NCBI GenBank assembly: GCA_050261115.1
Contig: JBLNCY010000065.1
Coordinates: 1-19,126, forward strand
Direction: 5' to 3'
Origin: Methanocella sp.
Lineage (GTDB): Archaea > Thermoproteota > Bathyarchaeia > Bathyarchaeales > Bathycorpusculaceae
Length of the DNA: 19,126 bases
Both the position numbers and the translations under genes were made by a program. The notes beneath the pieces were generated by a model, which was given only the letters and a program-made list of their open reading frames with translations, made no database searches and was not told the origin of the DNA. Shown one piece after another: positions 4,296 through 16,956 of the stretch (position 1 is its first letter; every line of letters begins with the position of its first letter).

Positions 4296-4793
4296 GTGAA
4301 TTTTTTGGCAGTAAAAGTCGGCGATAAAGCCCCAGACTTCACGCTCCCCAGCCAGATGGGCGACAACGTGAGCCTCAACGAATACATAGGCAAGAAAAAC
4401 ATCGTGCTTTTCTTCTACCCCAAAGACGAATCCCCCGGCTGCACAAAAGAGGTCTGTAGCTTCCGCGATAGCTACCAGCAACTAACCGATTTGGGTGCGG
4501 AGGTGCTGGGTGTGAGTGGGCAGAGTGTGGAGTCGCATGCGGCGTTTGCATCGCATTATGGGCTGCCATTTTTGCTCCTAAGCGACGTGGACAATAAGGT
4601 TCGAAATCTTTACGGTGTTCCCGCAACCATGGGCATCATACCCGGTCGAGTAACCTATATCATCGACAAGAAAGGCTTCGTACGACACATTTTTAACTCT
4701 CAGACGCAGGCCACGCGGCACGTTGAAGAAGCCAAACGCTCCCTAGAGGATCTGGTCAAGGAAGAGCAGACCCAAGCGACCCCCGCAGCCTAA
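4296..4793 (+). CDS. bcp: Peroxiredoxin, BCP/PrxQ family
   Basis: GDKAPDF, FFYPKDESPGCTKEVCSFRD (PxxxS/TxxC plus CxxxxC) and RVTYIIDKKG. Start may be GTG 4296 or TTG 4305. Confidence 0.93.
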   Translation: MNFLAVKVGDKAPDFTLPSQMGDNVSLNEYIGKKNIVLFFYPKDESPGCTKEVCSFRDSYQQLTDLGAEVLGVSGQSVESHAAFASHYGLPFLLLSDVDNKVRNLYGVPATMGIIPGRVTYIIDKKGFVRHIFNSQTQATRHVEEAKRSLEDLVKEEQTQATPAA

Positions 4794-4803
4794 GGCGCCC
4801 CTC

Positions 4804-6039
4804 ATGCTAAGCATCTACAATACGCTAACCCGACAAATCGAGCCCTTCAAACCCCAAAACGACAAGCAAGTCAAAATGTACACCTGCGGCCCCTCCACAT
4901 ATCAGCGCCCCCACATCGGCAACTACCGCACGTTCCTCTTCGAAGACATACTGCAACGCTACCTTGAGTATCAAGGTTACAAAGTCACGCGTTTAATGGC
5001 TTTAACTGACGTGGAGGATAAAGCGATAATGGAGGCTAAAAAGCAAAGACTACGCCTCGACGCCTTAACCCAGAAAAATGAAGCCATATTCTTCAAGGAC
5101 TTCGAGCTACTGTACATCAAAAAACCCGACTACCCCATTCGCGCCTCCCAAGCAGTAGACCAAGCCGCCAACCTCATAGCTAAGCTTCTTCAAAGCGGCC
5201 ATGCCTACTGGTACACCCATCAAGGCATCAAAAACGTCTACTTCGACCCTCTAAAATTCAGCGGCTTTGGTAAACTCGCTCACCTTGACATGTCCAAATG
5301 GCCCAAACGGCACCGCCGATACCACAAAGACACCTACCCCGGTACGCCCTGGAACATGGGCGACTTTATTCTCTGGCATGGCTGTGGACTTGAAAAAGTC
5401 TGCTACAAGACCCCGATTGGTAGTGGTAGGCCAGCGTGGAATATCCAAGACGCCGCCATCGTAACCAAGCATCTTGGCTTTAGCGTTGACATTGCCTGTG
5501 GAGGGGTCGATAATCTTGTGCGGCATCATGATTACACTATTGCGATTGTGGAGTCGATTTCTGGGCAGCAGTTTGCGGGTTTTTGGCTGCATGGGGGGCA
5601 CCTGTTTGTGGATGGCGCCAAGATGTCTAAGAGTACGGGTAATGTGGTTTATCCTTCTGATGTGCTTGAGAGGGGGTTTAGTGGGAGGCAGCTTCGGTTT
5701 TTCTTAATTGATGCGCCTTATCGTGATGAGTTGGATTTCACGTTTGAAAAGTTATCTGACTCTTCCGGGCGCCTTGAGAGTTTGAGGGGCATGATTAAGG
5801 CACTACAGCAGACCGTGCAGCCTTCCGATAAGTGTATGGGCGACTCCTATGTGGGGCGAATCACAAGTGAATTTGAAGCACACATGAACAATAACCTAGA
5901 CGTAGCCGGAGCAATCAAAACCCTCACCCAAACAGTCACAGAAGTATACGAGAAATCTGACGCTTTGCCCAGAGAAGAAATAGAAAATGTATTAGCTGAC
6001 TTAGCGCAGGTTGATTCTGTGCTGCAGTGTCTATTCTAG
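4804..6039 (+). CDS. Cysteinyl-tRNA-synthetase-like class I ligase (divergent paralog)
   Basis: IYNTLTR, MYTCGPS, HIGN, TDVEDK, DFILW, GRPAW, GGVD..RHH and KMSKS. Two Zn-ligand positions are substituted and the C-terminus is short. Confidence 0.85.
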   Translation: MLSIYNTLTRQIEPFKPQNDKQVKMYTCGPSTYQRPHIGNYRTFLFEDILQRYLEYQGYKVTRLMALTDVEDKAIMEAKKQRLRLDALTQKNEAIFFKDFELLYIKKPDYPIRASQAVDQAANLIAKLLQSGHAYWYTHQGIKNVYFDPLKFSGFGKLAHLDMSKWPKRHRRYHKDTYPGTPWNMGDFILWHGCGLEKVCYKTPIGSGRPAWNIQDAAIVTKHLGFSVDIACGGVDNLVRHHDYTIAIVESISGQQFAGFWLHGGHLFVDGAKMSKSTGNVVYPSDVLERGFSGRQLRFFLIDAPYRDELDFTFEKLSDSSGRLESLRGMIKALQQTVQPSDKCMGDSYVGRITSEFEAHMNNNLDVAGAIKTLTQTVTEVYEKSDALPREEIENVLADLAQVDSVLQCLF

Positions 6040-6267
6040 TTCGCCGACGAATTTTACGCGGTCAAAGTTTTCTACATTATGCGGCGCCATATCCAATTCT
6101 TCGGTTAAGTCTTTGCCTGCATCGTGCATGCCCATATGTTGTCCGTCTATCCAGAAACTGCTCTCAGAAACATCATATACTTTGCCTTGATATGCAAACC
6201 ATGCGGGTTTACCGTTTTTACCATCATTTGATTCTAGTTCTTGACGGGTTACTTTTCTTTGTGCCAT
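6031..6267 (-). CDS. Cytochrome b5-like heme/steroid-binding domain protein
   Basis: ELESNDGKNGKPAWFAYQGKVYDVS..W..G.H...H.AGKDLT.....APH....VGEL pattern. Confidence 0.9.
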   Translation of the reverse strand: MAQRKVTRQELESNDGKNGKPAWFAYQGKVYDVSESSFWIDGQHMGMHDAGKDLTEELDMAPHNVENFDRVKFVGELE

Positions 6268-6326
6268 GAAAATATGCCTCTGAAATTATTTGGTGGCTTG
6301 AGGGCAATAAAGGTTTAGCTTGCTTG

Positions 6327-14670: not shown

Positions 14671-16956
14671 TTGGAGGTATAGCAAGTTAGAGGCTGGATT
14701 TTTGACGTTTATCCTGGCGATGAAGGCGAAATAGTAGTCTGGGTCATAAGCGAGAGTGGGGAACGTATCCGCTTAATCGATAGTTTCCAGCCTCAAATCT
14801 ATGTATCGGGCGCAAGAGAGAACGTCGAAGAGTGTCTTAGCAAGCTATACCATAACAAAGACATAGTTGGCTGGAAATTCATAGAAAAATATGCTAAGCC
14901 AACTGATCCGAAAAAAAGCAGCGTTTTGGAATTAACCCTAAAAGATTATCGGAAAGCAACCTACCTGACAAAAGAAATTCTGCGATTAGGGGACTACTCC
15001 CGTCTTGATGTTCATAACGCCGATCTGCATACCGATAGAGCGTATTTGTTTAGCAGAGACCTCTTTCCCCTAGCTTTTGTTGATATCCAAAAGAAGGGTG
15101 GACGGCTGGTCTACACCCTAAAAGATGATGTAGCGAGCACTGATTACTCTATTCTACCCTTGAAGACATTAAAGATGGAAATAAAGATTGCAAAGAGCGG
15201 CAAAATAGCACAAGTCACCGATCCCATAAAGCAAGTAACCCTGACTCAACAGGAAACCACCGTAACGATAGGAGAAAGAGATGAAGCTGAGACCCTTTTA
15301 AAACTCGCAAAGGCAGTCTGGGAGTTAGACCCAGACTTTTTGCTAACAAACGGCGGTGACTCCTACGTGTTTCCCTACCTGGCCCAACGAGCAGCCGAAA
15401 ATCAGTTGTCATACCAATTCACGCTAAGCCGGGATCCCGTTCCTCTGTCAAATAACAAAGCATCTGGCAGCACTTATTTCTCCTATGGACGAACCTTCTT
15501 TAGAGCTAATCCTCAACGTCTCTTTGGCAGGGTGCATATTGACTATTCCAACACATTTGTAATCTCCGAAGCAGACATAGATGGCTTAATCGAAATCGCC
15601 AGAACTTGCCGTGTACCACTACATACTGCTGCTCGCAACTCTATTGGATCAAGCATGACCTCGCTGCAACTCTACCAAGCCATAAAAGACGACCTTCTAA
15701 TTCCTAGAAACAAGAGTATTTCTGAAGCGTTCAAATCAGCGCAGGAACTCCTTATCGCTGATAGAGGCGGTTTCGTCTTTGAGCCAAGGGTTGGAGCCCA
15801 CGAACACATAGGCGAAGTGGACTTCAGCAGCATGTACCCCATGATAATGGCAAATAACAACATATCAGCCGAGACAATACTCTGTAAATGTTGCCCCGAC
15901 TCACCGATTCGCATACCCGATTTGAACTATCATATATGCACAAAACGTCAAGGCATCGTCGCTAAAACGACTCGTCTAGTCGTAGACAAAAGATTGTACT
16001 ACAAAAAAATGAAAGACCAATCACTCGATCCGCTGGTAAGCGAGATTTATAATAAGCGACAGATTGCGCTGAAATGGATTCTGGTCACATGCTTCGGTTA
16101 CTTGGGATTTAAGAACTCAAAATTTGGCACTATAGATGGTCATATTGGAGTCTGTGCTTTTGGGAGAGAAGCACTTCTTAACGCGGCTCACACAGCAGAG
16201 GATTATGGGTTTGAAGTAATTCATGGCATAGTTGACTCATTATGGCTCAAAAAACCAAACGCTCCAGTGGAAGAGTACAAAGCCCTCTGCGAAACAATCA
16301 CCAAAAAAACCAATATACCCATTAATTTTGAGGGTAAATACAAATGGATCGTCTTTTTACCCTCCAAAATGCACCCCAACATAGGTGTACTAAACCGCTA
16401 CTATGGCGTTATGGAAAGCGGCAAAATTAAAGTTCGGGGCATAGAGGTAAGACGCCGAGACACCCCCAAATTCATCAGTGACGCCCAAACGGATATGATA
16501 AAAGAGTTATCAACTGCAAACAACGTCTCTGAACTCTATGAACGAATCCCAAAAGCACTAAACGTAGTGGGGGCCTATCGGCAGAAGCTTCTGGATAACG
16601 AGATTCCTATTTGGGATTTAATCATAAAGAAGCATCTATCCAAAGAACCCAGACATTACCGGCAAAACGTAAGCCAGGTTATCGCAGCAAGACAGCTTCA
16701 ACAAGCGGGGGAACAGGTAAACGCAGGCAGCAGTCTAAAATTTCTTTTTACAGATGCAAAAAACAAAAGACCTTCCCGCAGGGTGAGAGCTCAACAGTTA
16801 ATCGGTGAAACAACCAATCCGGATACCCGCCAATACCTAAAGATGCTGTATGACTCTTCTGCTAACCTGCTGAGCTTTGCAGGATTCACGACAAGAGCCA
16901 TCTTCGAAGCGGTTACCAAACAAAAACAAGCCCATCTAGAACTTGCGAAATTTTGA
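14671..16956 (+). CDS. polB2: Family B DNA polymerase, PolB2 (Dpo2) group; 5' end interrupted by an in-frame TAG
   Basis: Motif A DFSSMYP, CKCC cluster, motif B RQIALKWILVTCFGY, motif C HGIVDS, LNRYYG and KVRGIEVRRRDTP. The frame is open from 14683 (QVRGWIFDVYPG...), 81 codons upstream of the track start at 14926. Confidence 0.9.

Follow-up and report, generated by a model that had tools for sequence, protein, structure and literature searches.

A stretch of 19,126 nucleotides (the window) of contig JBLNCY010000065.1, from an assembly named Methanocella sp. (GCA_050261115.1, hereafter G000) that GTDB places in the Bathyarchaeia, encodes at positions 4804 to 6039 a paralog of cysteinyl-tRNA synthetase (CysRS) of 411 amino acids (aa). 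The paralog is a real, uncharacterised, abundant, and lineage-restricted member of the CysRS family. We assign a probability of roughly 40% to the reading, drawn from sequence comparison, that it is an accessory ligase: cysteinyl-AMP would be made on a metal site of Cys, Asp, and His, and the cysteine would be passed to a non-standard acceptor, with the favoured route being ligation to an amine as in MshC, the L-cysteine:GlcN-Ins ligase of mycothiol synthesis. A sequence-only reading of the window had earlier proposed an adenylating enzyme with an altered amino-acid substrate and possibly a non-tRNA acceptor.

The paralog is proposed to act beside the housekeeping CysRS, in two steps. In the first, as the retained residues suggest, ATP would be bound via the HIGN and KMSKS motifs and an L-alpha-amino acid via G29, S31, and T68, and an aminoacyl-adenylate would form, most likely cysteinyl-AMP. 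A metal bound by C28, D216, and H241 would pick out the thiol, and W212 would pack against the side chain. In the second step, as the replaced residues suggest, the activated residue would not take the standard route to A76 of tRNACys. Non-standard transfer is proposed because the second half-site is rebuilt (H224A/G, P233R, N237Y, E238T/N, and Q241I/V, in canonical numbering). In the favoured form of this step cysteine would be joined in amide linkage, as by MshC, to an acceptor that carries an amine and is probably anionic (in view of the invariant R240 and the basic CP1 loop), and the product may be a thiol compound that serves in defence against oxidative or electrophile stress. MshC-like transfer is argued because of the changed positions that the two proteins share, their similar length, and the missing anticodon-binding domain. 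The positions on which the argument turns are the following.

4804..6039, + strand: open reading frame (ORF) of the paralog, ATG start, TAG stop (stop codon included), 411 aa; from Pfam, NCBIfam, and alignment to 1li5
4885..4887, + strand: C28, first metal ligand, kept; aligned to 1li5, found in all 30 clade and all 93 canonical sequences
4912..4923, + strand: HIGN, ATP-binding signature (HIGH motif), aa 37-40; position re-derived
5005..5010, + strand: T68-D69, where T68 is the contact to the alpha-amino group (T83 of MshC); 1li5 alignment and excerpts of PMC9736012
5290..5382, + strand: lengthened basic CP1 loop MSKWPKRHRRYHKDTYPGTPWNMGDFILWHG, aa 163-193, a hallmark of the clade; charge and column conservation
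5437..5451, + strand: WNIQD, aa 212-216, where canonical enzymes have WHIEC; 1li5 alignment and clade comparison
5494..5496, + strand: A231 at the His224 position (DIHGGG to DIACGG); 30 clade against 93 canonical sequences
5521..5538, + strand: RHHDYT, aa 240-245, where canonical enzymes have PHHENE; 1li5 alignment and clade comparison
5620..5634, + strand: KMSKS loop, aa 273-277; present in 118 of 121 homologs

A distinct clade of short CysRS-like proteins

The catalytic family of CysRS, PF01406, matches residues 15-320 of the paralog (Pfam, E 1.3e-73), so the core of a class I aminoacyl-tRNA synthetase (aaRS) is present. The protein ends without the distal part that reads the anticodon, as had been noticed from the sequence: the 411 aa have no Pfam match to DALR_2 or CysS_C, and the match to the cysS model TIGR00435 (NCBIfam) covers positions 1-397 of 466, leaving out the anticodon-binding domain of the C terminus. 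Its score of 312.8 bits lies below the cut-off of 340. The canonical CysRS of relatives are about 473-486 aa long, match model positions 3-465, and score about 390-570 bits. Against the MshC model, TIGR03447, the paralog scores 183.8 bits, which is below the cut-off of 485.1. An AlphaFold2 model made with an alignment of 98 sequences has a pLDDT of 93.9, a pTM of 0.93, and a terminal helix at 390-407. Foldseek ranks CysRS first for this model (8qhp with a TM-score of 0.89 and 1li5 with 0.85), then MshC (8hfn, 0.85), and the best match in both sequence and fold is the CysRS 8qhp (E 6.4e-63). The nearest entries by features in the ESM Atlas, to be taken as leads only, are short CysRS-like clusters and MshC clusters.

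A residue-by-residue alignment to E. coli CysRS (1li5) places C28 on C28 and T68 on T68. In the WNIQD segment W205 is kept as W212, while H206 is replaced by N, E208 by Q, and C209 by D216. In the RHHDYT segment H234 is kept as H241, while P233 is replaced by R, N237 by Y, and E238 by T245. Thus the intact HIGN, KMSKS, and C28, as well as the exchanges of Cys209 for D216 and of Glu238 for T245, stand as first described, and the unusual segment that had been seen ahead of the pocket motifs proves to be the basic CP1 insertion. HIGN itself is not unusual, since Asn at the last position of the HIGH motif is found in 78 of 93 canonical representatives and is the commoner form.

The pocket substitutions are not a matter of chance, because they recur in proteins retrieved by homology. 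A set of 121 such proteins, gathered without a motif search (64-100% identical, mostly 411 aa, the query and an identical copy included), has GRP[AS]WNIQD in 112 members, RHHDY in 119, and KMSKS in 118. At greater distance, 15 of the best 150 sequences in a HMMER search of 50%-identity cluster representatives carry both motifs, at 41-62% identity, and nearly all of the others read GRPGWHIEC and FPHHENE. The signature of the clade is WN[IV]QD, RHHDY, and KDTYPG..GDFILW; the columns invariant in distant members are the CP1 motif (P, D.Y.G, N.G.FILW), W-N-x-Q-D, and DN..RHHDY. A quick maximum-likelihood tree of 71 sequences, midpoint-rooted and with no MshC and no CysRS* (a CysRS paralog of Desulfobacterales) in it, recovers the clade as monophyletic (SH-aLRT 99). 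The clade falls outside a group of 49 rows, mostly full-length CysRS (support 99), that holds the housekeeping CysRS of Bathyarchaeia, and a recent duplication of Bathyarchaeial cysS is ruled out by this placement. The motifs of the homologs and the tree bear out the proposal that WNIQD and HHDY mark a conserved clade, and by its TIGR00435 and TIGR03447 scores the paralog is distinct from both CysRS and MshC.

The nearest neighbour (sister) of the clade in the tree is P0145, a short form that reads WNVQC and HHENT. P0145, P0203, P0232, P0128, P0136, and P0147 are short CysRS-like forms of about 405-417 aa without the anticodon-binding domain, and they seem to represent additional paralog families, as yet uncharacterised. 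In P0203 and P0232 the conserved Trp is missing (GRPGNAIYC and GRPGTHSYC), and SD stands where others have TD. Within the clade, C194 and C200 were considered as an extra metal site and ruled out, as they are not conserved in distant members. Position 76 is variable; it is the second Lys position of the KIIK motif, which we take to be linked to a reading of such proteins as cysteine-persulfide synthases. No fused form with the clade motif is present among 120 longer proteins listed of 166 (E <= 0.001), which is weak evidence. These longer relatives (P0391-P0510) are canonical-type CysRS fused to PALP (cysteine-synthase-like, about 760-800 aa) or to GT2 domains. Of the PALP fusions one is named for a metagenome-assembled genome (MAG) of Woesearchaeota and one is called a cysteine synthase of Desulfobacteraceae; the fusions to a family 2 glycosyltransferase domain are mostly proteins named for Chloroflexota.

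The amino-acid half-site

The half-sites were compared between 30 clade sequences and 93 canonical representatives. The canonical set was picked by the patterns GW[HS].EC and HH..E, and the uniformity of E208, C209, and E238 within it is therefore by construction. C28, G29, N40, T68, D69, W212, H241, and H242 are kept in all 30 clade sequences, and S31, N213, Q215, D216, R240, D243, and Y244 are fixed in all 30 and unlike canonical CysRS. The zinc ligands of E. coli CysRS are C28, C209, H234, and E238. Two of these four persist in the paralog, as C28 and H241, and two are replaced, C209 by D216 and E238 by T245, so that the four-ligand zinc site is not preserved.

Each of the two replacements has a counterpart in a known enzyme. 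Asp occupies the Cys209 position in 120 of 120 CysRS of the Thermoplasmata type (GRPGWH[IV]EDT; P0207 and P0280-P0390), among them those of Thermoplasma acidophilum, T. volcanium (SYC_THEVO), Picrophilus, and Ferroplasma, all cultured genera. In contrast to the paralog, these proteins have the full length (about 452-470 aa) and retain all other canonical residues, including H206, E208, H224, P233, E238, and Q241; they are presumably the sole CysRS of their organisms. Their Asp209 arose independently, because in the tree they nest inside canonical CysRS. The other replacement, the loss of Glu238, is found in MshC. The M. smegmatis enzyme aligns as GRPGWHVECSAI ... DIQGGG ... FPHHEYSAAH, and excerpts of PMC9736012 describe its Zn as held by C43, C231, H256, and the thiol of the ligand only, and its ligand's alpha-amino group as bound by T46, T83, and the carbonyl of G44. 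MshC differs from the paralog in keeping WHVEC, that is, H206, E208, and the second Cys ligand (C231). The paralog, with Asp in place of this second Cys, lacks the two-Cys and one-His Zn site of MshC and shares with it the three-ligand layout without Glu.

By analogy with these enzymes, Asp209 alone or the loss of Glu238 alone is compatible with cysteine activation, and the pocket of the paralog reads as the three-ligand layout of MshC combined with the Asp of the Thermoplasmata. On this analogy cysteine would be the most economical substrate, at somewhat better than even odds. The altered amino-acid substrate put forward in the sequence-only reading is not established, given Asp209 in Thermoplasmata CysRS and the loss of Glu238 in MshC.

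A change of specificity is nevertheless possible, if doubtful. The metal would then be lost or re-purposed, and a pocket of D216, N213, Q215, R240, D243, and Y244 would pick a non-thiol substrate, for example Ser or Thr, 2,3-diaminopropionate, or an anionic compound such as O-phosphoserine. This explanation bears on the first step only and can be combined with either of the acceptor hypotheses discussed below. It would account for the seven pocket-region positions that are fixed across the clade and differ from canonical CysRS, with two Glu removed and one Arg gained. It also fits the spread of residues at position 245 (of 77 metagenome members with HHDY, 37 have N, 18 T, 15 V, six S, and one I), which implies that this residue is not a ligand, and with the lack of any characterised enzyme that pairs Asp209 with the loss of Glu238. 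However, C28, H241, W212, T68, and G29, the residues by which CysRS and MshC recognise cysteine and zinc, are invariant, both Asp209 and the loss of Glu238 are seen separately in cysteine-using enzymes, and the genome has no SepCysS (the best score of the profile in G000 is 36 bits, against a cut-off of 365). In a bolder variant, the rebuilt pocket of R240, Y244, N213, Q215, and the Cys/Asp/His metal site may activate an anionic relative of cysteine such as O-phosphoserine, which would make the paralog a class I counterpart of SepRS.

The acceptor half-site and the CP1 loop

Four positions that were not used to pick the canonical set are strongly conserved in it: H224 in 93 of 93 sequences, Q241 in 91, P233 in 87, and N237 in 78. 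The clade has A/G, I/V, R, and Y at these places, and the three commonest residues at the His224 position among its 30 sequences are A (20), G (6), and H (1). MshC has Q for H224, H for Q241, S for E238, and Tyr for N237. Thus, of the five replaced positions (H224, P233, N237, E238, and Q241) four are changed in MshC as well, P233 being the one that MshC keeps, and at two of these four the new residue is identical or similar in both proteins. For example, MshC reads HHEYS where the paralog reads HHDYT, with no Glu at E238 and Tyr at N237, and DIQGGG where it reads DIACGG; both have lost His224 and Gln241. The likeness extends to the general build, since MshC (3c8z, 8hfm) too has about 410 aa, a catalytic core with a helical bundle, HIGH-type and KMSKS motifs, no anticodon-binding domain, and an accessory position beside a housekeeping CysRS. 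Its CP1 loop has nearly the same length, and PG falls at the corresponding position, in a weak alignment (E 0.046). With canonical CysRS (1li5/1u0b, 8qhp) the paralog has C28, T68, W205, H234, and the ATP motifs in common, but it differs by H206N, E208Q, C209D, H224A, P233R, N237Y, E238T, and Q241I, by the absence of the anticodon-binding domain, by the basic CP1 insertion, by its place in a separate deep clade, and by a score below the TIGR00435 cut-off.

The net charge of residues 160-186 is +4.8 +/- 1.0 in the 30 clade sequences, against -1.1 +/- 2.5 in the 93 canonical ones. To judge from a CP1 loop that is basic clade-wide and an invariant R240, the acceptor is likely to be anionic, and RNA is an obvious candidate.

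An RNA-directed enzyme is a rival explanation that we regard as tentative. It would aminoacylate tRNACys or another tRNA by the acceptor stem alone, in the manner of CysRS*, or an RNA at a site other than the 3' end, as GluQRS does, and the positive charge of CP1 would offset the lost anticodon-binding domain. According to excerpts of PMC5389517, the CP1 loop of CysRS contacts the acceptor stem and reads base pair 1:72 of tRNACys, and an engineered CysRS with a changed CP1 motif and no anticodon-binding domain cysteinylated tRNA in vivo. The same excerpts describe CysRS* of Desulfobacterales, the partner of selC* tRNACys-UCA, which like the paralog has no anticodon-binding domain and an altered CP1. 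The CP1 residues of CysRS* are PTVS, where the paralog instead has a basic insertion, and its gene adjoins selC* and selB*, whereas the paralog has no linked tRNA. No selB*-like recurrent neighbour cluster appeared around the paralog, selB* not having been searched for as such. The lack of conserved partners and of fusions suits an acceptor present in every cell, and the hidden Markov model (HMM) score and the fold are nearer to CysRS than to MshC. Against an RNA-directed role, H224, Q241, P233, and N237, which are conserved in tRNA-charging CysRS including those of Thermoplasmata, are all replaced. No tRNA is linked to the paralog either: the window has no tRNA gene, and the 11 predictions in 179 loci (2.14 Mb) include no Cys, suppressor, or opal tRNA. 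In G000 a scan that did not consider introns gave 41 tRNAs, of which one is tRNA-Cys(GCA) and none a suppressor. As for other structured RNA, no Rfam family reached its gathering score in the window.

A non-tRNA acceptor is plausible, at roughly the level given to the accessory ligase as a whole, and an RNA-directed role is possible at a lower level. What the sequence-only reading had suggested about the acceptor therefore stands in part: the second half-site is indeed replaced, partly as in MshC, but a basic CP1 loop lies where CysRS contacts tRNA.

Several observations weigh against an accessory ligase of the MshC type. The combination of Asp209, no Glu238, H206N, and E208Q has no characterised precedent, and cysteine is not assured as the substrate. 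The CP1 loop is lengthened and basic across the clade, which favours an RNA acceptor, and the loop of almost equal length at its place in MshC is acidic (regional alignment, E 0.046). In excerpts of PMC7278568 mycothiol and its genes are not known in archaea. Of the mycothiol genes the search covered the MshB-type family, PIG-L. PIG-L deacetylase (MshB/BshB type) is present in three of five non-carriers and four of five carriers of the paralog, and G040, a carrier assembled as a single contig, does not have it. A mycothiol- or bacillithiol-like route via this deacetylase was rejected, since it does not co-vary with the paralog. Among the metagenome loci there are no conserved partner genes for acceptor synthesis and no universal neighbour, and no set of glycosyltransferase, deacetylase, or acetyltransferase genes recurs in the 80 loci. 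Finally, the genes that flank the paralog point to inertia of gene order and not to a functional unit, because the flanks persist where the paralog is missing.

Distribution, genomic context, and significance

A scan of one genome per prokaryotic species returned 141 relatives. The best 80 of these 141 loci comprise 74 titled Bathyarchaeota or Bathyarchaeia, five titled "uncultured archaeon", and one titled "Candidatus Acidoferrum"; the clade is found almost only in Bathyarchaeia. The "Candidatus Acidoferrum" locus (L038, 7232 bp) has the complete Bathyarchaeial order of UDG, small ORF, MIase-like, methyltransferase, hydrolase, and peroxiredoxin genes. Because of this full gene order the contig is probably an archaeal one mis-binned in a bacterial MAG, and the bacterial occurrence an artefact. 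Of 401 genomes sampled from the phylum, nine contain the paralog (at least 426 bits): five of 11 in the genus of the window (one of them broken), three of four in a genus of another family, and one of one in a genus of a third family. Metagenomes hold at least 528 relatives with 41-59% identity to the protein of the window; both motifs served as search patterns in that scan, so their presence there is circular.

The patchy distribution and the occasional broken copies (G021, G022, and G396) could be taken for signs of a catalytically dead or decaying copy, or of a purely regulatory pseudo-enzyme, which we consider very improbable. dN/dS (the ratio of nonsynonymous to synonymous substitution rates) has a median of 0.137, or about 0.14, and a maximum of 0.261 over 50 gene pairs with 80-99% protein identity, and the clade is under purifying selection. 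In addition, HIGN, KMSKS, and the amino-group contacts are reported invariant, the predicted fold is confident, the relatives are numerous in species-representative genomes as well as in metagenomes, and the stretch is present in RNA libraries. The description of a conserved, non-decaying paralog is upheld by the dN/dS values and by the monophyly of the clade.

Near-identical DNA occurs in metagenomes from bioreactor, soil, digester, sludge, and compost. Six metatranscriptome runs contain 26-51% of the sampled words of the sequence, and four runs from four studies contain contigs with at least 99% identity over parts of the ORF. The paralog is probably expressed, with DNA carry-over possible; the RNA-library evidence consists of assembled contigs, in which gaps within the ORF are uninformative and which give neither transcript ends nor levels.

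The relation to the housekeeping enzyme was compared in 41 related genomes. Canonical cysS is above the cut-off in 39 of them, and the paralog is present in 20, of which 18 are intact (G000 included) and two are broken. Both genes occur together in 18 of the 19 carriers other than G000, the exception being G009, which is 56% complete. G000, the window's own assembly, is 94.85% complete in 66 contigs, and no canonical cysS, SepRS, or SepCysS was found in it; the paralog is its sole cysS-like gene. In three genomes of the same genus (G013, G426, and G349) the immediate neighbour of cysS is a gene of 262-290 aa. Of its homolog in G000 only the first 102-103 residues align, at positions 66649-66957, where contig C64 (66958 bases) runs out. 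That cysS, SepRS, and SepCysS all seem to be lacking is best put down to an assembly gap, because the contig ends inside the cysS-adjacent gene, and the housekeeping cysS of G000 is probably unassembled, not absent. The separate enzyme expected beside the paralog is therefore missing from this assembly and found in the other carriers. Since six of 24 genomes of the genus lack the paralog and the three named above have it in broken form, it is a dispensable, accessory gene. That it is the sole, merely divergent housekeeping CysRS of its organism, as the G000 assembly by itself could suggest, is the least probable explanation, in view of the cut at the end of C64, the carriers with both genes, and this dispensability.

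One gene of the window lies directly upstream of the paralog.

4296..4793, + strand: AhpC/TSA peroxiredoxin gene, 10 nt upstream of the paralog; Pfam PF00578, E 3.3e-39

A peroxiredoxin gene is found at this place in 74 of 80 genome loci, and one RNA-library contig (4752-4920) spans the junction of the two genes. The pair is separable, however: five loci have the paralog without the peroxiredoxin, G017 has the peroxiredoxin without the paralog, and G005 and G024 have neither, so the pairing is a loose one only. The order MIase-like, methyltransferase, alpha/beta hydrolase, peroxiredoxin, paralog, and Zn-ribbon is kept in 72-78 of the 80 loci. The local cluster was considered as a pathway and rejected, as the flanking genes are still in place in genomes of the genus that lack the paralog. 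In G005, between the Zn-ribbon gene and the hydrolase gene, a stretch of 19 residues (L109:5842-5898) resembles the C-terminus of the paralog (58% identity, E 0.023); this is a weak hint that the paralog may have been deleted there.

In other lineages the neighbours differ. At four of four loci from two other families a Y-family (IMS/Dpo4-like) polymerase gene lies within about 10-20 nt downstream on the same strand (L020, L106, L107, and L108). The metagenome context comprises 80 divergent loci, about 50 of which have at least 1.2 kb of flank on a given side. Twelve of them have a Y-family polymerase neighbour (e.g., L131:9208-10329), which forms only two protein clusters at 70% identity. Other neighbours are ferritin-like (nine loci), SDR (eight), and MatE (eight, in seven clusters), followed by nitroreductase, hydrolase-OsmC, CNNM/CorC, DsrE, and DUF3786 with six loci each. 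The neighbours of the paralog thus vary between lineages and, by raw counts, often look to be of a stress or redox type, a context that speaks in favour of the proposed accessory ligase.

Two further features of the window were noted. An ORF of 80 aa (6027-6269, + strand) overlaps the stop codon of the paralog; Pfam gives no match for it and BLAST finds a counterpart at only 12 of 80 loci, so it is probably no gene. Contigs from RNA libraries continue across this stretch and reach 6258-6291. The segment 14000-19126 has a G+C content of 0.38-0.45, against 0.47-0.53 upstream, and contains a family B DNA polymerase ORF (14926-16956; PF00136, E 7.4e-38), its other ORFs being short and without Pfam matches. 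It may be foreign or mobile DNA.

A full-text literature search, which did not cover most subscription journals, returned no description of the clade. In excerpts of a review, MshC and CysRS* are the only CysRS paralogs given (PMC9437257). Excerpts of PMC2922099 ask whether MshC is a one-off and treat MetRS paralogs, and those of PMC8762117 and PMC5424206, on the SepRS and selenocysteine (Sec) systems of Bathyarchaeota, do not discuss the paralog. It is conceivable, as a tentative proposal, that the clade stands beside MshC and CysRS* as a third functional class among CysRS paralogs. In one version, (a), it would be the committed ligase for a low-molecular-weight thiol of Bathyarchaeia, in the first MshC-like thiol pathway of archaea. 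In the other, (b), it would attach cysteine to a non-cognate tRNA or, at a site that is not the standard one, to an RNA, in a response to oxidative or DNA-damage stress.

Paralogs of aaRS are a recurring source of new chemistry, such as mycothiol, glutamyl-queuosine, and stop-codon recoding. With Cys, Asp, and His at the zinc site of CysRS, the present clade is a variant provided by nature that could serve to probe the share of the four-ligand site in cysteine selectivity; the Thermoplasmata enzymes, with Asp209 and E238 kept, are another natural variant of this site. The clade is abundant in Bathyarchaeia, which are widespread and mostly uncultured archaea with a thiol and redox biochemistry that is largely unknown. 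If the paralog acts on RNA, it would add an example of RNA modification, or of a tRNA being recognised by an enzyme that has no anticodon-binding domain; if it builds a thiol cofactor, these archaea would have a new redox buffer.

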